The position numbers and the translations under genes were made by a program. From IMG/VR virus record IMGVR_UViG_640753024_000003, positions 1 to 27,998 of that record: a DNA stretch of 27,998 nucleotides, one strand, 5' to 3'. This document shows positions 13,685 through 27,414 of the stretch, piece after piece (positions within the stretch are counted from its first letter, which is position 1; the number at the start of each line of letters is the position of its first letter). The DNA is from a virus (Duplodnaviria; Heunggongvirae; Uroviricota; Caudoviricetes). Under the pieces are notes generated by a model, which was not told the DNA's origin, did no database searches, and saw only the letters and a list, made by a program, of their open reading frames with translations.

Positions 13685-15223
13685 TTATTCAGTCGGCAGT
13701 GCTACGCGCCAGGGGAGCAGTTCGCCGACCCGGTTTATCGGCCAGTCGGCTATGACGTCAAGGACATAGCGGAGGTAGCTTTCTGGCTCCACTCCGTTCA
13801 GTTTGCACGTCCCGATCAGGCTGTACAGCAGCGCTCCCCGCTCTCCTCCATGATCCGAACCGAAGAACAGGTAGTTTTTGCGGCCCAGACTGACCATCCG
13901 CAACGCATTTTCAGCGATGTTATTGTCCGCCTCAGCCCAGCCATCATCTGCATAGTACGTCAGCGCCGGCCACTGGTTCAGGGCGTATGCGAACGCTTTC
14001 GCCAGTTCTGAGTGTCGCGACAGGGTTTTCATCTTTTCACGCAACCAGCTTTCCAGGGATTTCAACAGCGGTTTCGTTTTTCGCTGACGTTCAGCAAGCC
14101 GCTGCTCTGCCGGCATTCCCCTTATATCCGCCTCTATGGCGTACAACTGACCGATCTGCTCCAGGGCTTCTTCCGTCAGTGCTGACGGGATGCGGACGTG
14201 CACATCGTGGATCTTTCGGCGGGCATGAGCCCAGCAGGCAGCTTCCGTTATCCCACCATTGCGATACAGCTCGTTGAACCCGGCGTACGCATCCGCTTGC
14301 AGCACACCGCTGAAGCAGGCAAGATGAGTCTGCGGATGGATGCCTTTTCTGTCCGGGCTGTAAGCGAACCACACTGCAGGTGCCAACGCTGACCCGGCAT
14401 TGCGGTCATCACGAACATACGCCCACAACCGCCCGGTCTTCGTCTTCTTATTACCCGGCAGCAGTACCTGGACCGGGGTATCATCGGCATGGAGTTTGCC
14501 GTCAGTCATGACATAGCCATGAAGCGCCTCTTCCAGCGGAGACAGCAGCCGGCAGCATGCATCCACCCAGCCCGACAGCAGTGAACGGCTCAGCTCCACA
14601 CCTTGCCGGCCGTATATTTCTGACTGGCGATACAGCGGGGTGTGCTCTGCATACTTCGAGGTCAGCACGCGGGCCAGCAGCCCCGGTCCGGCGATACCCC
14701 GCTCGATGGGCCGCGAAGGTGCAGGTGCCTGCACGATGGCATCGCACTGAGTACAGGCATGTTTTTCCCGTACCGTCCGGATAACCCGGAAGGCACTACG
14801 CATCAACTCCAGCTGTTCGGCGGTATCCTCGCCCAGATAGCTCAGTGAACCGCCGCAGTTCGGGCAGCACGGCGCCGCAGGCAACAGTCGCTTTTCGTCA
14901 CGGGGTAGTGATTCAGGGAACGGCTTACGGGTGCGGGTCTGACGCAACGGACGCTGTACAGCCGGGTCATACACCCTACCAGTCAGCGTATCGCTCTCTT
15001 TCTGAAGCCGGTTCAGATCGGCTTCCATTTGTGCGATACGGCGGGAGACTTTTTCGGAACGACTGCCGAAGTTCATCCGGCGGAGTTTATCCAGCTGCGC
15101 CTGCAGATGGTCTATTTCGCGCTCCCAGTTGCTCAGCTTTTCCTGCAGGGCGTGGATCAGCGCTTCCTGTTCGGCCAGGCGCTGTTTCAGCAGGAAGATG
15201 TCGTCAGAAGAGATGTCGTTCAT
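13685..15223 (-). CDS. tnpC: IS66-family transposase TnpC
   Basis: 512-aa ORF with N-terminal coiled coil/leucine zipper, CxxC...CxxC zinc finger (CCPNCGG...CTQCD) and DDE-type core. Confidence 0.9.
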
Positions 15224-15272
15224 AAGCCCGTATTTTACCGGGCTTATTCTGTGACAACCAGGATAAAGAGAT

Positions 15273-15620
15273 TTACAGCATGGTCAGGGAGGTCAGCAAC
15301 CGCTTGGGCTGTCGCCAGTCGATACCTTCCAGCAGCATCGCCAGCTGCGCCTGCGTAAGGAACACTTTGCCATCACGGGCTGACGGCCAGGCGAAGCGCC
15401 CACGCTCCAGCCGTTTGGTCAGGAGGCACAGTCCGTCACCGGTGGACCACAGCAGTTTAACCTGACTGCCGCTGCGGCCCCGGAAAATGAAAACATGGCC
15501 GGACATGGGATCGTCTTTCAGCGCCGTTTGTACTTTCGCAGCCAGGCCGTTGAAGCCATTTCTCATATCGGTGATACCGGCAACCAGCCAAATTTTGGTC
15601 CCGGAAGGTAACGGGATCAT
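15273..15620 (-). CDS. tnpB: IS66 accessory protein TnpB (Orf2)
   Basis: 115-aa [33 protein letters not shown]... in the middle position of the IS66 operon, overlapping tnpA stop. Confidence 0.85.
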
Positions 15621-16018
15621 CGCTTCAGTTCCTGTATCAGCAGAGTCAGGAGCTTTTCGCTGACATTGCCATTGAAGCGGAGCGTCCCGTGCCGGAACGT
15701 TACCTCACAGCTGATACTGAGGGTTTCCGGGTCCTCTGCGAGCGATTCTGGCTGTTCGGCAGCTGCATCGAGAGTCACAGGAAGTAGCTGGGGGCTCTCT
15801 GAAGAAGGTAATAGCAGCTTTCCCTCGCGCCATTGTTGTCGCCATTTGAACAACAGATTGGCGTTAATGCCATTTTCAAGAGCAAGTTTTGAGATGGATA
15901 TCCCGGGTTCACAGGAGGCAGCAACGAGCTGCTGTTTAAATTCGGGAGGATAATTAGGGCAGCCTTTTCGCCTGCCGGGAGTCACATTTTTCTGCATATC
16001 TGACACTTTGGTTCCCAC
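15617..16018 (-). CDS. tnpA: IS66 accessory protein TnpA (Orf1, HTH)
   Basis: 133-aa ORF in the first position of the IS66 operon; ATGA overlap with tnpB. Confidence 0.8.
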   Translation of the reverse strand: MGTKVSDMQKNVTPGRRKGCPNYPPEFKQQLVAASCEPGISISKLALENGINANLLFKWRQQWREGKLLLPSSESPQLLPVTLDAAAEQPESLAEDPETLSISCEVTFRHGTLRFNGNVSEKLLTLLIQELKR

Positions 16019-18899: not shown

Positions 18900-19283
18900 A
18901 TGCGTGATATTCAGATGGTTCTTGAGCGTTGGGGAGCGTGGGCGGCTAATAATCATGAAGATGTGACCTGGTCGTCCATTGCCGCCGGTTTTAAGGGATT
19001 AATTCCTTCAAAAGTAAAATCTCGCCCGCAATGTTGTGACGATGACGCGATGATCATTTGCGGGTGCATGGCCCGTCTGAAAAAGAACAACAGCGATTTG
19101 CACGATTTATTAGTAGATTATTATGTAGTCGGTATGACATTCATGTCACTGGCAGGTAAGCATTGCTGCTCTGATGGTTATATCGGGAAAAGGTTACAGA
19201 AAGCTGAGGGTATAATTGAAGGGATGTTAATGGCATTAGATATCCGGTTAGAGATGGATATCGTTGTTAATAACTCTAATTAA
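18900..19283 (+). CDS. quuD: Q-family late-gene antiterminator (QuuD-like)
   Basis: 127 aa from [22 protein letters not shown]...; Cys-rich zinc-binding region; located between nin genes and the lysis cassette. Confidence 0.85.
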
Positions 19284-19304
19284 TATGCCAATTGTTTACT
19301 AAAA

Positions 19305-19334
19305 ATTATTAAAAATGGGGCGTTGAGACGCCCC
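19305..19334 (-). terminator. Intrinsic terminator (minus strand) for the porin transcript; further hairpins at 19400-19423 and 19431-19447
   Basis: Stem ggggcgt/acgcccc with loop tgag; on the minus strand followed by atttttaataattttt. Confidence 0.45.
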
Positions 19335-19471
19335 CAAAAATAAAGGGTAATATATAACAGAAGGTTTATATAGTTAGAAGCAAGGTTGTGCTCCTAAAGG
19401 AAGTGGCTTGAGGGAGCCACTTATATGTTGGGGAGGCAAAGCCTCCCGCAACATATCTTTTAGTAATCAAA

Positions 19472-20554
19472 TTAGAACTGGTAAACCATACCTACAGCAA
19501 CGATATCATCGGTAGCAACGCCAGATGCTTTCGTGAAATCGCTCTTATCAATCAGGTTGATTTTGTAGTCAACAAAAGTGGACATATTTTTGTTGAAGTA
19601 ATAGGTTGCACCTACATCAACATATTCAACCAGGTCCTGATCACCCCAAACACCCAAGTCTTTTCCTTTAGAATGCAGGTAAGCAACGGATGGACGCAGG
19701 CCGAAGTCGAACTGATATTGTGCAACAGCTTCGAAGTTTTGTGCTTTGTTGGCAATATGGTTATTACCAAAAACAGTCATGTTCTGGGTTTCAGAATAGG
19801 TGGTGGCCAGATAGATGTTGTTCGCATCATATTTCAGACCAGCTGCCCATACTTCAGCATTTTGACCAGAAGCATTCAGACCGTTGTTACCGTAGATAAC
19901 CTGATTATTAGTGCGATCAGATTTAGCATAGGTTGCACCCACGCCGAATCCTTCATACTCATAAGTAGTTGAGAAACCGAAACCATCGCCATTAGCTTCA
20001 GTTACTTCATTTCGGTCATTTTTGCCCTGATACTGAGCTGCAAAGTTCAGGCCATCAACCAGACCAAAGAAGTCGTTGTTACGATAAGTTGCAACACCTG
20101 TGGTGCGACCAGTCATGAATACATCTGTTTGGGTCCAGGTATCGCCACCGAATTCTGGCAGAACGTCAGTCCACGCACCGATGTCGTATGCTACACCGTA
20201 GTTACGGCCGTAATCGATTGAGCCGTAGTCACCGAATTTCAGGCCTGCAAATGCAAGACGGGTTTTGTCTTTGGAGGAACCTTGAGATTCAGCGCGGTTG
20301 CCTTTGAATTCATATTCCCACTGACCGAAACCAGTCAGTTGATCGTTGATTTGGGTTTCACCTTTGAAGCCAAGACGGGCATAAGTAGTATCACCATCAT
20401 CTGCATCATTAGAGGAGAAGTAGTGCTTAGCATTAACTTTCCCGTACAGATCCAGCTTGTTACTGTCTTTATTATAAATTTCAGCTGCCTGAGCAGACAT
20501 CGCCATCAGTACTGATGCAGCTACAGCAGAAATTGCCACTGTTAATTTTTTCAT
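19472..20554 (-). CDS. nmpC: Prophage-encoded general porin of the OmpC/OmpF/NmpC family (intact)
   Basis: 360-aa ORF with signal peptide ([23 protein letters not shown]) and C-terminal VYQF beta-barrel signal; antisense between Q and the lysis genes as in DLP12. Confidence 0.9.
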
Positions 20555-21142
20555 CGTGAGCCCTTTTTTTTGAACTATTATTAAAAAATGATGTCACTGC
20601 GCGATAAATATTCATCTAATCAATGTGATTATTTCAAGATGTAAGTTTTAGTTTCTCATTTAATTTGTGAAGTAGATCTCTATTTTTATCTGAACTTTTT
20701 CTATCGAAACCTATTTATGGCTCTTATTTGAACAAAAATAAACCTATTAGCTAATTTATATTAATGGCTGTTATTTATGGGGGTTCTATAATTCGGCAGT
20801 TTAATTTAAATCAACTAAAAATAACCTCTGAAATTATTTATTGGTTATTTGTTGAGGTTTTCTTATGTATTTGTGGTGGTGTTTTGAACACTCGGTAGCA
20901 TTCTCATAAATATCATTCAGTGGTTTACGTACGTAAAAAATTGGTTATGCTGTTAAGAGTGGTTACTTCGTCACACAGCTTAAACCCGCCGTCGAGCTGG
21001 TTTTTCCATTTTTTGAGTCTCGATATTAGCTGATAACTCAATACCTGAGTTACTCACTGACTCCGAGTCTGTTACGTTTCTGCTTTTTTGCGATACGTTG
21101 TATTCCCTCAATTTACACCCGCTTTGTCTGCGAGGTGGGGTT

Positions 21143-21358
21143 ATGAAATCCATGGATAAGTTAACAACGGGTGTCGCCTATGGCACCTCAGCAGGTAGTG
21201 CCGGTTACTGGTTTTTACAGCTGCTCGATAAAGTCACGCCCTCACAGTGGGCAGCAATAGGTGTGCTGGGTAGCCTGGTATTTGGCCTGCTGACGTACCT
21301 GACAAACCTTTATTTCAAGATTAAAGAAGATAAGCGCAAGGCTGCGAGAGGTGAATAA
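21143..21358 (+). CDS. essD: Class II holin/pinholin of phage-21 S type with dual-start motif (Met1 and Met4)
   Basis: 71 aa from [71 protein letters not shown]; two TM segments; GAGGTGGGG ribosome-binding site. Confidence 0.85.
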
Positions 21359-21855
21359 TGCCTCCATCATTACGAAAAGCCGTTGCTGCTGCTATTGGTG
21401 GCGGAGCAATTGCTATAGCATCAGTGTTAATTACTGGCCCAAGTGGTAACGATGGTCTGGAAGGTGTCAGCTACATACCATACAAAGATATTGTTGGTGT
21501 ATGGACTGTATGTCACGGGCATACAGGAAAAGACATCATGCTCGGTAAAACGTATACCAAAGCAGAATGCAAAGCCCTCCTGAATAAAGACCTTGCCACG
21601 GTCGCCAGACAAATTAACCCGTACATCAAAGTCGATATACCGGAAACAATGCGCGGCGCTCTTTACTCATTCGTTTACAACGTGGGTGCTGGCAATTTCA
21701 GAACATCGACGCTTCTTCGCAAAATAAACCAGGGCGATATCAAAGGCGCATGTGATCAGCTACGTCGCTGGACATATGCTGGCGGTAAGCAATGGAAAGG
21801 TCTCATGGCTCGTCGTGAGATTGAGCGTGAAATCTGTTTGTGGGGTCAGCAATGA
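21358..21855 (+). CDS. rrrD: SAR-type endolysin (lysozyme, phage-21 R type)
   Basis: 165-aa ORF; N-terminal Gly/Ala-rich weakly hydrophobic signal-anchor-release segment ([23 protein letters not shown]) followed by lysozyme domain. Confidence 0.9.
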
Positions 21856-22289
21856 ACAGAGTAACCGCGATTATCTCCGCTCTGGTTATCTGCATCATCG
21901 TCTGCCTGTCATGGGCTGTTAATCATTACCGTGATAACGCCATGACCTACAAAGAACAGCGCGACAAAGCCACATCCATCATCGCTGACATGCAGAAGCG
22001 TCAACGTGACGTAGCAGAACTCGATGCCAGATATACAAAGGAGCTTGCTGATGCTAACGCGACTATCGAAAGTCTCCGTGATGATGTTTCTGCTGGGCGT
22101 AAGCGGCTGCAAGTCGCCGCCTCCTGTGCAAAGTCAAAGACCGGAGCCAGCAGCATGGGCGATGGAGAAAGCCCAAGACTTACAGCAGATGCTGAACTCA
22201 ATTATTACCGTCTCCGAAGTGGAATCGACAGGATAACCGCGCAGGTTAACTACCTGCAGGAGTACATCAGGACGCAATGTCTGAAATAA
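21852..22289 (+). CDS. rzpD: Inner-membrane spanin Rz
   Basis: Start at MNRVTAII overlapping endolysin stop (ATGA); N-terminal TM helix, then coiled-coil periplasmic domain. Confidence 0.8.
22051..22236 (+). CDS. rzoD: Outer-membrane lipoprotein spanin Rz1, embedded in the +1 frame of Rz
   Basis: ORF inside Rz with lipobox LLGVSGC followed by Pro-rich segment ([16 protein letters not shown]); start position approximate. Confidence 0.7.
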
Positions 22290-22321
22290 TTTTTTTGCAA
22301 ATCACAAAGTCCATTTAATGA

Positions 22322-22378
22322 GCCTCGCGATGCGGGGCTTTTTTGCAATAAATGCGTACCGCAACGCATGTTTTTTTT
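22322..22378 (+). terminator. Tandem intrinsic terminators after the lysis cassette
   Basis: Hairpin gcctcgc-gat-gcggggc followed by T6 (22322-22344); hairpin atgcgt-accgca-acgcat followed by T8 (22352-22378). Confidence 0.65.
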
Positions 22379-22493
22379 ACACCGAACCTGCCCCTTTGGA
22401 ATGGGCCTTTGAGGATACCAGTTAGTGCTGGCGAGCCTCGGTGGGCTGGTTTCCTGTGCGGCAAAGGTTCATTTCAAATGGTAGGTAAACGTT

Positions 22494-23015
22494 ATGAATA
22501 TCGTGCCACTTAATTACAAAGGTGAAATTGTCAGTTTCAACACTGATGGTTGGATCAACGTCACAGGTGTTGCTGAGAGATTTGGGAAACGCATTGATAA
22601 CTGGATGCGTTTGGCAGAAACGCTTGAATACGTTCGTGCTTTAGACGAAGCGTTGACCGGGAAAGAATCTCAAATTTTACATCCCTCACAATCGAGGTAT
22701 GTAAAAACCAGCAAGGCACGAAAGGACAGGGGTGGTGGTACGTGGCTACATCCAAAACTTTCAGTTGCATTTGCCCGTTGGTGTGATGCTCGTTTTGCTG
22801 TGTGGTGCGACCTGCACATTGATAGTCTGCTTCGCGGTGAACTGACTGAGCAGCAGAAATATGAGCAAGCATGTCGCATTCGCGATGACCGGAAATCAAA
22901 AGCCAGCAATGGGGCAAGAGAGATGGCTCGCTGGCGATGGGATAAGCCGGTTATTGAAGCAAATGTTGAGTACTGGCGCGAGCAACTGCAGTTGACTCTC
23001 GATATCGCGTGCTGA
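22494..23015 (+). CDS. KilA-N domain protein (anti-repressor/Bro-like)
   Basis: 173-aa ORF; N-terminal region (FNTDGWINVTGVAERFGKRIDNWMRLAET ... WLHPKLSVAFARWCDARF) matches the KilA-N DNA-binding domain pattern. Confidence 0.65.
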   Translation: MNIVPLNYKGEIVSFNTDGWINVTGVAERFGKRIDNWMRLAETLEYVRALDEALTGKESQILHPSQSRYVKTSKARKDRGGGTWLHPKLSVAFARWCDARFAVWCDLHIDSLLRGELTEQQKYEQACRIRDDRKSKASNGAREMARWRWDKPVIEANVEYWREQLQLTLDIAC

Positions 23016-23364
23016 TGGCAAACGCAAAACTGCGTTATCGAAAAAATCAAAGCATTACTAGAACTGAGCAACGGCTATCCATTACAAAGCCCATCTACGG
23101 GTGGGCTTGATAATGGCTTATACCCTGCACGGGATAACTTAACTGATATCCCTTTTAACGGATAAAGGCATTCAAGCCTGACACATCATGCGCTGTATCG
23201 TCGCCGTATTCCCGTATTAACAGAGACCGTAGCCCGACGGGGAACTCCTTCTGCGCGAGTGTGCGGGAATAATCAAAAACGATGCACACCGGGGTTACCG
23301 GGTACACATATTTCATCATGCCAGCGAGTCCGGTTCTGGCACGGAAGAAACCGGACGTTATGAT

Positions 23365-23775
23365 TTAGTGCGGAAATATTTGTGTAGTGTTCTGAATGTT
23401 CTCAGTAAAGAGTAATGAATTATCAAAGGTATAGTAATACCTTTTGTTTTCGTGGATATTTGTAATCCATCTGAAAACCCCTGCTGTAGCAAGATTTTTC
23501 CTGTATTCGTAAAATGATAACTCTCCTGATTTGAATCCTTTTAAGGTGGCTTCTATAAGGCATTTATTTTTTGAAAATCTTACATTTACAACCTTACCCT
23601 GTCCTTTTATTAAAACCGTATTATCGTTTTCAAGAACAAGATGAATATTCTCTGTAGCTAAATAGTAAATGTAATGTGAGACATTGTGACGTTTTAGTTC
23701 AGAATAAAACCAGTGATAGTTTAAATTATTTCGCACTTTATCGAATATTTGTTTAAAAATGGCAACCTGAGCCAT
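23365..23775 (-). CDS. ybcV: YbcV-like protein (DUF1398 type)
   Basis: 136 aa from [58 protein letters not shown]...; recognised as DLP12 YbcV-like. Confidence 0.75.
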
Positions 23776-23831
23776 TGTAGTACCTTCCATGTGATATGAG
23801 GGGCGTAGTCTGCACGATTATCTAAATTGCT

Positions 23832-24065
23832 TCAATCTGGTCTGATCTGTTTTCTGAGCAATTCAGTAATGTCACTCTTTTCTTTGTTTGCTTCAGGAGA
23901 AACTCTTTTTTCTGAGCACAGTCTCCGGCGGCAGGCTTCAATGACCCAGGCTGAGAAATTCCCGGACCCTTTTTGATCAAGAGCGATGTTAATTTGTTCA
24001 ATCATTTGGTTAGGAAAGCGGATGTTGCGGATTGTTGTTCTGCGGGTTCTGTTCTTCGTTGACAT
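23832..24065 (-). CDS. Small protein adjacent to cos, possibly YlcI-like (DUF3950) DNA-binding protein
   Basis: 77-aa ORF MSTKNRTRRTTIRNIRFPNQMIEQINIALDQKGSGNFSAWVIEACRRRL...; assignment from memory, not verified. Confidence 0.45.
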   Translation of the reverse strand: MSTKNRTRRTTIRNIRFPNQMIEQINIALDQKGSGNFSAWVIEACRRRLCSEKRVSPEANKEKSDITELLRKQIRPD

Positions 24066-24264
24066 GAGGTTGTCCCGTATTTAGTGTCGCTGATTTGTAT
24101 TGTCTGAAGTTGTTTTTACGTTAAGTTGATGCAGATCAATTAATATGATACCTGCGTCATAATTGATTATTTGACGTGGTTTGATGGCGTAGATGCACGT
24201 TGTGACATGCAGATGATAATTATTATCATTTTGCGGGTCCTTTCCGGCGATCCGACAGGTTACG

Positions 24265-24276
24265 GGGCGGCGACCT
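24265..24276 (+). other. cosN (12-nt lambda cohesive-end sequence GGGCGGCGACCT) within the cos region (~24180-24453, with cosB before nu1)
   Basis: Exact lambda cohesive-end sequence preceded by acaggttacg (lambda right end) and followed by cgcgggttttcgctatttatgaaaattttccggtttaaggcg (lambda left end). Confidence 0.85.
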
Positions 24277-24453
24277 CGCGGGTTTTCGCTATTTATGAAA
24301 ATTTTCCGGTTTAAGGCGTTTCCGTTCTTCTTCGTCATAACTTAATGTTTTTATTTAAAATACCCTCTGAAAAGAAAGGAAGCGACAGGTGCTGAAAGCG
24401 AGCTTTTTGGCCTCTGTCGTTTCCTTTCTCTGTTTTTGTCCGTGGAATGAACA

Positions 24454-24999
24454 ATGGAAGTCAACAAAAAGCAGCTGGCTGACATTTTCGGTGCGAGTAT
24501 CCGTACCATTCAGAACTGGCAGGAACAGGGAATGCCCGTTCTGCGAGGCGGTGGCAAGGGTAATGAGGTGCTTTATGACTCTGCCGCCGTCATAAAATGG
24601 TATGCCGAAAGGGATGCTGAAATTGAGAACGAAAAGCTGCGCCGGGAGGTTGAAGAACTGCGGCAGGCCAGCGAGGCAGATCTCCAGCCAGGGACTATTG
24701 AGTACGAACGCCATCGACTTACGCGTGCGCAGGCCGACGCACAGGAACTGAAGAATGCCAGAGACTCCGCTGAAGTGGTGGAAACCGCATTCTGTACTTT
24801 CGTGTTGTCGCGGATCGCAGGTGAAATTGCCAGTATTCTCGACGGGATCCCCCTGTCGGTGCAGCGGCGTTTTCCGGAACTGGAAAACCGACATGTTGAT
24901 TTCCTGAAACGGGATATCATCAAAGCCATGAACAAAGCAGCCGCGCTGGATGAACTGATACCGGGGTTGCTGAGTGAATATATCGAACAGTCAGGTTAA
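24454..24999 (+). CDS. nu1: Terminase small subunit Nu1
   Basis: 181-aa ORF MEVNKKQLADIFGASIRTIQNWQEQGMPVLRGGGKGNEVLYDSAAVIKWYAERDAEIENEKLRREVEELR..., recognised as lambda Nu1. Confidence 0.95.
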   Translation: MEVNKKQLADIFGASIRTIQNWQEQGMPVLRGGGKGNEVLYDSAAVIKWYAERDAEIENEKLRREVEELRQASEADLQPGTIEYERHRLTRAQADAQELKNARDSAEVVETAFCTFVLSRIAGEIASILDGIPLSVQRRFPELENRHVDFLKRDIIKAMNKAAALDELIPGLLSEYIEQSG

Positions 25000-26563
25000 C
25001 AGGCTGCGGCATTTTGTCCGCGCCGGGCTTCGCTCACTGTTCAGGCCGGAGCCACAGACCGCCGTTGAATGGGCGGATGCTAATTACTATCTCCCGAAAG
25101 AATCCGCATACCAGGAAGGGCGCTGGGAAACACTGCCCTTTCAGCGGGCCATCATGAATGCGATGGGCAGCGACTACATCCGCGAGGTGAATGTGGTGAA
25201 GTCTGCCCGTGTTGGTTATTCCAAAATGCTGTTGGGTGTTTATGCCTACTTCATAGAGCATAAGCAGCGCAACACACTTATCTGGTTGCCGACGGATGGT
25301 GATGCCGAGAACTTTATGAAAACCCACGTTGAGCCGACCATCCGCGATATTCCGTTGCTGCTGGCGCTGGCTCCGTGGTATGGCAAAAAGCACCGGGATA
25401 ACACGCTCACCATGAAGCGTTTTTCCAATGGTCGTGGCTTCTGGTGCCTGGGCGGTAAAGCGGCAAAAAACTACCGTGAAAAGTCGGTGGATGTGGCGGG
25501 TTATGATGAACTTGCTGCCTTTGATGAGGATATTGAACAGGAAGGCTCTCCGACGTTCCTTGGCGACAAACGTATTGAAGGCTCGGTCTGGCCAAAGTCC
25601 ATCCGTGGCTCCACCCCCAAAGTGAGAGGCACCTGCCAGATTGAGCGTGCAGCCAGTGAATCCCCGCATTTTATGCGTTTTCATGTTGCCTGTCCGCACT
25701 GCGGGGAGGAGCAGTACCTTAAATTTGGCGATAAAGAGACGTCGTTTGGCCTCAAATGGACGCCGGATGATCCCTCCAGCGTGTTTTATCTCTGCGAACA
25801 TAATGCCTGCGTCATCCGCCAGCAGGAACTGGACTTCACTGATGCCCGTTATATCTGCGAAAAGACCGGGATCTGGACCCGTGATGGCATTCTCTGGTTT
25901 TCGTCATCCGGTGAAGAGATTGAGCCGCCGGACAGCGTGACCTTTCACATCTGGACGGCGTACAGCCCGTTCACCACCTGGGTGCAGATTGTCAAAGACT
26001 GGATGAAAACGAAAGGGGATACGGGAAAACGTAAAACCTTCGTAAACACCACGCTCGGTGAGACGTGGGAGGCGAAAATTGGCGAACGTCCGGATGCTGA
26101 AGTGATGGCAGAGCGGAAAGAGCATTATTCAGCGCCCGTTCCTGACCGTGTGGCTTACCTGACCGCCGGTATCGACTCCCAGCTGGATCGCTACGAAATG
26201 CGCGTATGGGGATGGGGGCCGGGTGAGGAAAGCTGGCTGATTGACCGGCAGATTATTATGGGCCGCCACGACGATGAACAGACGCTGCTGCGTGTGGATG
26301 AGGCCATCAATAAAACCTATACCCGCCGGAATGGTGCAGAAATGTCGGTATCCCGTATCTGCTGGGATACTGGCGGGATTGATCCGACCATTGTGTATGA
26401 ACGCTCGAAAAAACATGGGCTGTTCCGGGTGATCCCCATTAAAGGGGCATCCGTCTACGGTAAGCCTGTGGCCAGCATGCCACGTAAGCGAAACAAAAAC
26501 GGGGTTTACCTTACCGAAATCGGTACGGATATCCAACAGCGTATGGAAATATCATTCACCTGA
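24974..26563 (+). pseudogene. A: Terminase large subunit A, 3'-truncated (first ~519 codons lambda-like, then 10 junction-derived codons and a stop)
   Basis: ORF MNISNSQVNRLRHFVRAGLRSLFRPEPQTAVEWADANYYLPKESAYQEG... matches lambda gpA up to ...VYLTEIGTD (about 26531), then diverges ([10 protein letters not shown]); lambda gpA is 641 aa. Confidence 0.85.
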
Positions 26564-27414
26564 AAGGGATGACAGCCGTTGGCGAAGGTGAGTTACTCAT
26601 CGGCTGGAGTGGTACAAGCGGTGCTCATGCTCCGGCATTTATTCGTTCACGACGGGATACGACCGACGCAAACTGGTCGCCGTGGGCGCAGCTTTACACC
26701 TCGGCTCATCCTCCTGCAGAGTTTTATCCAGTCGGTGCACCAATCCCGTGGCCATCAGATACCGTTCCGTCTGGTTATGCCCTGATGCAGGGGCAGACTT
26801 TTGACAAATCTGCTTACCCGAAACTTGCAGTTGCTTATCCGTCAGGCGTGATCCCTGATATGTGTGGCTGGACGATTAAGGGCAAGCCCGCCAGTGGTCG
26901 TGCCGTATTGTCTCAGGAACAGGACGGCATAAAATCGCATACCCACAGCGCCAGCGCATCCAGTACGGATTTGGGGACGAAAACCACATCGTCGTTTGAT
27001 TACGGCACTAAATCCACGAATAACACTGGTGCGCATACCCATAGTTTAAGTGGCAGCACGAATGCAGCTGGTAATCACAGCCATAGAGATGGCCGTCGAT
27101 TTAACCCCAGTGTTTTTAAAGATACTTATCAATATGGTTATACAAGCTCAGGTCAAAATACCTGGGGTGTACAAGGCTCAGTAGGTATGTCTACGGGGGC
27201 GTTAGCTAATACCAGTACAGATGGTAACCATAGCCACTCACTGTCCGGCACAGCAGCATCTGCAGGTGCACACGCACATACTGTCGGTATTGGTGCACAC
27301 ACGCACTCCGTTGCGATTGGTTCACATGGACACACCATCACCGTTAACGCTGCTGGTAACGCGGAAAACACCGTCAAAAACATCGCATTTAACTATATTG
27401 TGAGGCTTGCATAA
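26532..27414 (+). pseudogene. stf: 3' fragment of side tail fibre gene (C-terminal receptor-binding region with His-x-His repeats), fused to truncated A
   Basis: Open frame from the junction; C-terminus ...[31 protein letters not shown] and region [10 protein letters not shown]...PSGY...[56 protein letters not shown] match lambda Stf C-terminal region; N-terminal parts of stf absent. Confidence 0.8.

Follow-up and report, generated by a model that had tools for sequence, protein, structure and literature searches.

The KilA-N gene at 22494-23015 of the window (by which we mean the whole stretch of 27,998 nucleotides analysed) is, on sequence grounds, most likely an allele at the 'rha locus' of lambdoid phages, a hypervariable slot that follows the Rz/Rz1 spanin genes where the lysis cassette ends on its promoter-distal side, and that precedes cos and the packaging genes. 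A conserved leader of ~170 nt forms the entry to the slot: first the intrinsic terminator T1, then a short motif and a small hairpin, and last a hairpin of ~100 nt whose base pairs with the Shine-Dalgarno sequence. The cargo proteins encoded behind it have swapped N-terminal domains, usually of DNA-binding type (Phage_pRha, KilA-N) and sometimes T5orf172; many have in common a helical C-terminal domain, ORF11CD3, and the version in the window joins KilA-N to ORF11CD3. We put at roughly 0.6 the probability that this is a late-operon gene of the rha locus, read through by Q-modified polymerase, restrained in translation, and encoding a DNA-binding accessory regulator.

The gene itself is already known and annotated, and there is no novelty in it; as an annotated accessory gene whose copy in the window is not distinctive, it carries little weight. 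The interest lies in its leader: post-lysis KilA-N genes, the classical rha genes of P22 and phi80, and the small RNA P22F are usually annotated apart, and one leader joins them. The same leader provides a testable model for silencing of the slot, by a terminator together with a locked ribosome-binding site.

The gene, its protein and its prophage

The window holds a lambda/DLP12-type prophage adjoining ybhC, with genes for a lambda-type integrase, an S24 CI-like repressor and Q, an intact porin gene and S-R-Rz, then the KilA-N gene; after it come ybcV-type and ylcI-type genes on the minus strand, then Nu1. The gene for the large terminase is cut short and continues directly into a tail-fibre gene, and an IS66-family element is inserted at ~13.7-16.0 kb of the window. 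The prophage is therefore defective, and so late expression may rarely occur here. The features of the gene and its downstream neighbours are as follows.

22494-23015, + strand: KilA-N coding sequence, ATG to TGA, 173 amino acids
22512-22835, + strand: KilA-N domain, residues 7-114, APSES-like DNA-binding fold
22857-23000, + strand: C-terminal ORF11CD3-like domain, residues ~122-169, two long helices
Between the KilA-N gene and the ybcV-type gene, - strand: open reading frame of 54 amino acids
23365-23775/23790, - strand: DUF1398 (ybcV-type) gene, converging with the KilA-N gene
Starting at 24454: Nu1/nohD

The initial annotation had placed the gene between the lysis cassette and cos, converging on ybcV, and had named bor as the gene at this position in DLP12. 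Each of these points holds: the gene comes after Rz and ahead of Nu1, the gene facing it is of the ybcV type, and DLP12 of K-12 carries borD, on the minus strand, between rzpD/rzoD and ybcV. Homology of the window to DLP12 is lost from 22111 to 23189. The further claim, of different cargo at this position in DLP12-type prophages, is likewise correct: the slot has borD in DLP12, and rha in P22. In being an extra gene in a variably filled interval the KilA-N gene resembles a moron.

The protein had been assigned a KilA-N domain from its sequence, with Pfam proposed as the check, and the profile search bears this out: PF04383 matches with E 8.2e-22 and 77.5 bits, well above the cut-off of 23.8 bits, residues 7-114 aligning to profile positions 4-106 of 107. 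PHROG 129, 'transcriptional regulator', extends over all 173 residues, and PHROG 518, 'Rha-like transcriptional regulator', matches residues 118-170 (E 4e-9). As a single sequence the protein matches Pfam ORF11CD3 (PF10549) weakly over residues 122-169, its 16.2 bits (E 0.013) falling below the curated cut-off of 25 bits. When its C-terminus is compared by hhalign with the C-termini of P22-type Rha proteins, which score 91 bits on PF10549, the probability of the match is 95.8% (E 8e-9); BLASTP aligns the protein to a KilA-N plus ORF11CD3 protein that passes the Pfam cut-off (E 6e-11), and PF10549 is precomputed on its close homologues. Judged by these comparisons, the C-terminal domain and the ORF11CD3 domain with which P22 Rha ends are homologous.

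An AlphaFold model built with 35 homologues (pLDDT 93, pTM 0.83) predicts for the KilA-N domain an APSES-like alpha/beta DNA-binding fold, and folds the C-terminus into two long helices, 118-137 and 141-172, arranged as a hairpin. Foldseek against the PDB gave no significant match, APSES domains being top-ranked; sequence searches of the PDB and of NCBIfam gave no match. Nor does the protein match the Phage_pRha domain (PF09669) in Pfam at E <= 0.1, and its similarity to P22 Rha by BLASTP is not significant, so it is an allele of the locus, not a protein of the Rha family.

The protein is 100% identical to RefSeq WP_001028465.1, 'KilA-N domain-containing protein', and E. coli O104:H4, like many other strains, matches the 1111 bp around the gene at 100% identity. 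The same protein is gp62 of HK544 and is present in phages Emek and ev099 (gp69), with the same flanks; the gene is thus the same in these phages and the window, whereas the backbone in the window is different, being that of a defective DLP12/lambda-like element beside ybhC. A variant of 85% identity is found in the P22-like phages SE1, SPN3UB and E212. In all, 154 of 5426 complete E. coli genomes have the gene, and we found 704 homologues of the protein, most of them with the two-domain architecture; those of Pseudomonas reach 50-60% identity.

One leader ahead of varying cargo

In all the enterobacterial phages examined, siphoviruses and podoviruses alike, the gene immediately follows Rz/Rz1 and is on the late strand, ahead of the packaging genes (ev099, HK544, Emek, SE1, SPN3UB, E212, BIS08P22 and O157:H7). 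The rha genes of P22 (orf201) and phi80 occupy the identical slot; the phi80 record marks a 'putative rightward terminator' between Rz and rha and notes 'DNA synthesis inhibition in IHF- hosts'. In the window, 204 nt separate the Rz stop at 22289 from the ATG at 22494, and this region contains these elements.

22320-22344, + strand: T1, intrinsic terminator directly after Rz; stem 22322-22328/22332-22338, loop GAU, U6 at 22339-22344
22345-22353, + strand: short motif GCAATAAAT, between T1 and hairpin 2; GCAGTAAAY in most relatives
22352-22378, + strand: hairpin 2 (T2); 6-bp stem 22352-22357/22364-22369, loop ACCGCA, T8 at 22371-22378
22386-22486, + strand: long imperfect hairpin of ~40 bp, with a conserved internal loop of 6-7 nt on its 3' side
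22480-22486, + strand: Shine-Dalgarno sequence GGUAGGU, 7 nt before the ATG, pairing with ACCUGCC at 22386-22392 at the base of the long hairpin

T1 has a GC-rich stem (dG -14.1 kcal/mol) and, like the long hairpin, forms part of the MFE fold. It is kept in all leader variants, with compensatory changes from CG to GC in 6 sequences and from GC to AU in 5, and HK544 and phi80 have a rho-independent terminator annotated at its position. T2, from the terminator scan, is weaker (dG -6.9): every variant has its small GC-rich hairpin, but the T-run that follows is found only in the lineage of the window and HK544. The two tandem intrinsic terminators that had been noted ahead of the gene are thus both there in the window, each a hairpin with a T-run, but as a pair they are specific to this lineage.

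The upstream 200 nt of 80 IMG/VR loci encoding relatives of the protein fall into about a dozen diverged versions, and all of these retain T1, the short motif with the small hairpin, and the hairpin of ~100 nt. Each variant, folded singly, yields the same architecture despite widely differing sequences; since these independent folds agree, we take the leader structure to be real. In other variants the Shine-Dalgarno sequence is AAAGG(U) and pairs with (G)CCUUU. The hairpin contains G-U pairs, which identify the structure as one of + strand RNA. RNAalifold missed the long hairpin when the leaders had been aligned plainly with MAFFT, owing to misalignment of the variants; single-sequence folds and alignment by covariance model are required. 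A search of Rfam gave no family match in 21800-24500, even at E <= 1.

A covariance model, R1, built on the window-type hairpin detects the hairpin before every KilA-N homologue examined, and scores 108 bits on the P22 leader and 48 bits (E 7e-11) on that of phi80. The P22 leader agrees with the window type as far as 16 nt ahead of the ATG, and then gives way to a pRha-type reading frame. Pairing was assessed in two alignments fitted to the model, and hence with inflated values: 91.5% of cells are paired in the one whose loci were reached via the protein (A5), with changes on both sides in 25 of 40 pairs, and 86.8% in the one whose loci were reached via the T1 and motif DNA pattern (A9), with such changes in 28 of 40. 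The covariation scores of A5 and A9 are 0.432 and 0.398, the best slid controls being <=0.097 and <=0.072 respectively, and in neither case did any of 500 shuffles reach the observed score.

At least 120 viral contigs were recovered with that DNA pattern, GGGGCTTTTTT-N4-10-GCAGTAAAY. Among 80 loci chosen by it alone, 65 have the hairpin at E <= 0.001, and an ATG ~155-170 nt downstream opens proteins of 161-251 amino acids; two additional downstream reading frames are truncated at ~74 amino acids. The downstream proteins of the 73 loci that were classified are distributed as follows.

Phage_pRha plus ORF11CD3: 26/73
Phage_pRha plus another C-terminus: 16/73
KilA-N, various types: 26/73
T5orf172/MUG113: 4/73
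Without Pfam match: 1/73

In E. coli, 835 genomes carry the window-type leader, often ahead of genes annotated as 'Rha family transcriptional regulator', and in O157:H7 it precedes a different KilA-N protein. One locus has a second copy, ahead of an HNH-like reading frame. With cargo as varied as this, regulation by the leader is unlikely to be autoregulation by the product, given the unrelated domains of the proteins found behind the same leader. A second candidate feature was also rejected. The internal loop contains a GUG, AUG or UUG triplet in 51 of 56 distinct leaders, and in the window this triplet opens a reading frame of 10 codons (22456-22488), which stops 5 nt short of the ATG; among the variants, however, such mini-ORFs run from 1 to 10 codons and may be in or out of frame, and are therefore not a conserved coding feature.

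An RNA corresponding to the hairpin has been found in P22. A 2026 study of P22-infected Salmonella reported ten phage small RNAs, among them P22F, of 89 nt, on the + strand, whose 3' end is 6 nt short of the rha ATG; RT-PCR confirmed it, and its level was 2054 RPM in infected cells and 926 RPM in outer-membrane vesicles (PMC13397905). Its accumulation is shown in P22-infected Salmonella only (PMC13397905). Its first 79 nt are identical at 79/79 positions to window 22400-22478, the upper part of the long hairpin; its remaining 10 nt are not the same, since another gene follows. P22F and the hairpin of the window are placed alike with respect to the ATG downstream. The authors of that study place the start of rha at the ATG (PMC13397905). 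The rha starts of P22 and phi80 in RefSeq are GTG codons inside the hairpin and are for that reason probably wrong, which suggests, as far as sequence comparison can tell, that several database start codons for rha are in error.

Transcription of the locus and the role of its leader RNA

The initial annotation took the KilA-N gene for an independent transcription unit with its own upstream region. An upstream region of 204 nt does exist, but it is a conserved structured leader common to rha rather than a promoter region. The notion of an independent unit found no support: no promoter-like site was found upstream and no U-tailed terminator downstream, and the gene is co-oriented with S-R-Rz, exactly at the late-operon position that rha has in P22 and phi80. 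PMC4936722, summing up older genetics, describes rha as a gene of the late operon whose product is detrimental to lytic growth without IHF. The elements following the gene, on the + strand, are these.

23021-23036, + strand: small hairpin AACGCA/TGCGTT without U tail, just after the stop codon
23045-23057, + strand: perfect match (AATCAAAGCATTA) to the IHF consensus WATCARNNNNTTR, preceded by an A-tract and conserved in the cassette
23080-23115, + strand: strong hairpin (dG -20.4) without U tail, at the right-hand end of the mobile cassette

The first of these hairpins accompanies the gene in all the phages, and homology to HK544 and the P22-like phages stops at the last; P22 has an analogous hairpin, then the same GATAATGGCTTATACC. 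No U-tailed terminator was found on the + strand between the gene and ybcV.

In lambda, polymerase modified by Q ignores downstream terminators. Taken together, the lack of a promoter-like site upstream and of a U-tailed terminator downstream, and the late-operon orientation, argue for transcription of the KilA-N gene by Q-modified polymerase passing through T1 and T2. The gene would then have no promoter of its own and be transcribed within the late operon; at other times T1 and T2 would keep it silent by blocking the entry of any other transcription. Translation would be held down by the locking of the ribosome-binding site in the long hairpin, and the hairpin would survive as a stable RNA, that which accumulates in P22 as P22F. 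From the predicted structure we infer that sequestration of the Shine-Dalgarno sequence limits translation.

The scan for sigma-70-like promoters on which part of this argument relies found none between T1 and the ATG in the window, SE1-type or P22 leaders, and is an insensitive one: it also found nothing in 19200-21150, a stretch that must include a porin promoter and probably the late promoter. Between T1 and the ATG there may be a promoter that departs from the consensus. With such a promoter, weak or non-consensus, the gene could be an autonomous moron, expressed in the repressed prophage as bor is and insulated from the lysis genes by the terminators, a reading that we consider unlikely. 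It would make sense of the strong terminators immediately upstream and of a 204-nt region ahead of the ATG, but what is conserved in that region is accounted for by RNA pairing, not by hexamers, and three diverged versions of it lack any promoter-like match. The slot does hold a lysogen-expressed gene, bor, in DLP12, and the KilA-N gene has been retained in a defective prophage; its orientation and place, however, are those of late-operon rha, and there is no terminator of its own behind it such as a moron is expected to have. The 5' end of P22F, moreover, lies inside a hairpin arm and no -10-like element precedes it. A point against the late-operon reading is that P22F could be a primary transcript rather than a product of processing.

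Another reading gives the leader RNA the principal part: the main product of the locus would be a trans-acting small RNA like P22F, by analogy with IsrK of Gifsy-1, and the KilA-N reading frame mere cargo. An IsrK-like role was proposed by the authors of the P22 study (PMC13397905). P22F is as abundant in infected cells as sar and oop, but a stable hairpin can be a mere intermediate of decay; the structure of the hairpin is far more conserved than the type of gene downstream, but the hairpin pairs with the Shine-Dalgarno sequence of that very gene, at a fixed distance from the ATG. This conserved pairing and fixed spacing indicate a role in cis. No trans target is known or predicted, and we regard a primarily trans-acting RNA as quite improbable.

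The product and its relatives

In the late-operon reading the product would be a dimerising DNA-binding protein, an accessory regulator rather than an enzyme. The closest comparison is with the rha genes of P22 and phi80, which have the same slot, the same leader and a homologous ORF11CD3-type C-terminal domain. The proteins are alike in size, 173 amino acids for the KilA-N protein and about 178 for Rha, and differ in the N-terminal domain, which is KilA-N in the one and Phage_pRha, a winged helix, in the other. By analogy with Rha, the product may be dispensable, and may harm phage or host when over-expressed or when the host is without IHF. The Rha phenotype was defined for pRha-type proteins, and its transfer to the KilA-N protein would rest on locus, leader and C-terminal domain.

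It has also to be asked whether the protein acts at the lytic switch, binding or displacing a CI-type repressor or acting like Cro, and so affecting induction of this prophage or of co-resident ones. Two names point that way, 'anti-repressor' as the RefSeq label of P22 rha and 'transcriptional regulator' for PHROG 129; the former, however, is based on homology and not on experiment, and none of the antirepressor domains ANT/KilAC, AntA and P22_AR (N/C) was found in the 173-residue protein by Pfam at E <= 0.1. At the late locus, expression follows commitment to lysis, which would make antirepression of its own prophage pointless. Also in favour is the situation in prophages of P. aeruginosa, where a full-length homologue of 54% identity stands second in the early-right operon. 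There it overlaps the stop codon that closes a Cro-like reading frame, and it is divergent from the neighbouring gene for a cI-like repressor of the S24 type. In another phage a full-length homologue lies between tail genes. The protein is therefore not tied to late expression, and these contexts, seen from sequence, keep open a lytic-switch or antirepressor-like role for it; for the gene in the window we think this role doubtful.

A part in anti-phage defence or superinfection exclusion, with expression by the prophage, is very improbable. PADLOC gave a weak match (E 1.2e-5) to the candidate system PDC-S22, but it is confined to the KilA-N domain, a generic domain of a candidate that is unvalidated, and no partner genes are present. 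The slot adjoins other lysogenic-conversion cargo; the leader, however, is one common to genes known to harm the phage itself.

KilA of P1, from which a killing activity might be expected, has the same arrangement as the protein in the window, a KilA-N N-terminal module with a swappable C-terminal module. In P1 KilA the latter is a domain of KilA-C/ANT type, which the window protein lacks, and the lethality of P1 KilA cannot be transferred to it. The name 'KilA-N' should not be taken to mean 'killer' or 'antirepressor' without experiments. A network of domain-swapping phage DNA-binding proteins that takes in Bro, KilA-N and Rha was reportedly described by Iyer, Koonin and Aravind in 2002. KilA-N, ORF11CD3 and Phage_pRha are all included in this 'Bro network' (PMC10111431). 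The APSES DNA-binding domain of yeast Mbp1, a eukaryotic transcription factor, shows 11% sequence identity, and there is no common C-terminal part. The bor gene of lambda and borD of DLP12 are accessory cargo in the same Rz-cos interval as the KilA-N gene but are otherwise unlike it: bor is a lipoprotein gene on the opposite strand, expressed in the lysogen from its own promoter, and has no similarity to the KilA-N gene in sequence or regulation.

We suggest, tentatively, that T1 and the hairpin that sequesters the Shine-Dalgarno sequence, the equivalent of P22F, make up an undescribed family of cis-regulatory RNA that gates the slot whichever protein of the Bro network it holds, and that its control by a host factor (such as RNase III or IHF), not by the cargo protein, could explain the Rha phenotype. 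If this were true, host-factor control of the hairpin might be the missing mechanism of a phenotype now 40 years old. As to IHF, no site matching the consensus with <= 1 mismatch is found in the leader; the perfect match beyond the gene, at 23045-23057, is one of 7 in the 28-kb window.

A conserved leader before differing genes

A conserved structured leader occupies the entire region upstream of the KilA-N gene, its elements running in the order terminator, motif, small hairpin and a hairpin of about 100 nt, the last of which is predicted from its pairing to sequester the Shine-Dalgarno sequence. The pairing is backed by strong covariation. Rfam contains no family for window 22320-22493, and window 22400-22478 matches the published P22 small RNA P22F (PMC13397905) without a single difference.

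Positions of the leader
Window 22320-22493, +: conserved structured leader
P22 (L209) 1427-1647: shared leader
phi80 (L216) 43609-43777: shared leader
O157:H7 (L215) 2501-2678: shared leader

Comparison of P22, phi80 and O157:H7 with 80 IMG/VR loci (L089-L168), the latter chosen solely by the DNA pattern of terminator plus motif, showed that the N-terminal domains encoded behind this one leader vary: Phage_pRha, several KilA-N types and T5orf172/MUG113 are all found. Because the same leader stands before such differing domains, the slot after Rz appears, from the sequences compared, to behave as a hypervariable cargo site under constant regulation. Further matches occur elsewhere: in one viral contig the hairpin recurs (L070 4108-4223, +; 93 bits) ahead of an HNH/AP2-like ORF, which lacks an ATG at the expected position, and phi80 has a second, weak match (L216 45263-45354, +; 25 bits) before ORF x171.28, near cos.

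Start codons and small ORFs within the leader

In the RefSeq records NC_002371 of P22 and NC_021190 of phi80, rha starts at GTG codons lying within the conserved leader hairpin (L209 1576 and L216 43739); downstream of each is an ATG (1645 and 43775, respectively) with a Shine-Dalgarno sequence ahead of it. On this sequence evidence, the downstream ATG is more likely than the annotated GTG to be the start in both phages. Many 'Rha family' annotations in E. coli likewise overlap the leader.

Small ORFs across the leader
Window 22456-22488, +: 10-codon mini-ORF, opened by a GUG in the hairpin internal loop
Window 22315-22464, -: 49-aa ORF across the leader

Between the end of the mini-ORF and the start codon of the KilA-N gene lie 5 nt. 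Of the 56 leader variants, 51 carry a start-like triplet in the internal loop, which is probably an RNA motif rather than a coding feature; the mini-ORF itself is disfavoured as coding, neither its frame nor its length being conserved among the variants. Counterparts of the 49-aa ORF are labelled 'hypothetical protein' in SPN3UB and SE1; this ORF is probably spurious, since the RNA covariation is on the plus strand.

Homologues and the downstream flank

Full-length homologues of the KilA-N protein (54-64% identity) occupy quite different genomic positions, as seen in P. aeruginosa loci L210-L212 (4645-5522) and in L213 (5001-5528). One is the second gene of an early-right operon: it overlaps a Cro-like ORF at the latter's stop codon, and an S24 cI-like repressor gene is transcribed divergently from it. 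Another sits between the tail-terminator and major-tail genes.

Features downstream of the KilA-N gene
Window 23045-23057, +: perfect IHF consensus AATCAAAGCATTA, with an A-tract upstream
Window 23155-23319, -: 54-aa ORF between the KilA-N cassette and ybcV

The IHF consensus lies a short way past the KilA-N stop codon and is kept along with the cassette, which is intriguing in view of the IHF link of rha, though a chance match is expected, at one perfect match per 4 kb. The 54-aa ORF, hypothetical in the ev099 annotation, has no Pfam or PHROG match.

State of the prophage

Other features of the window
13685-16018, -: IS66-family element of three ORFs (HTH transposase, TnpB_IS66, DDE_Tnp_IS66)
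19472-20554, -: intact OmpC/NmpC-type porin gene, between Q and the holin gene
22051-22236, +: Rz1-type o-spanin frame with lipobox LGVSGC, embedded in Rz (21852-22289)
24974-27414, +: truncated large terminase and tail gene

The prophage is interrupted by the IS66-family element, and this insertion probably accounts for the roughly 10% of the query missing from the closest genomes. The large terminase (gpA type) stops after 529 aa, and a tail-collar/tail-fibre gene begins 6 nt later. Since the head genes and most tail genes are deleted, the prophage is defective, as is DLP12. In the O104:H4 RefSeq locus, identical in sequence, the Rz1-type frame is unannotated. Whereas the DLP12 porin copy of K-12 (nmpC) is disrupted by IS5, that of the window is intact.
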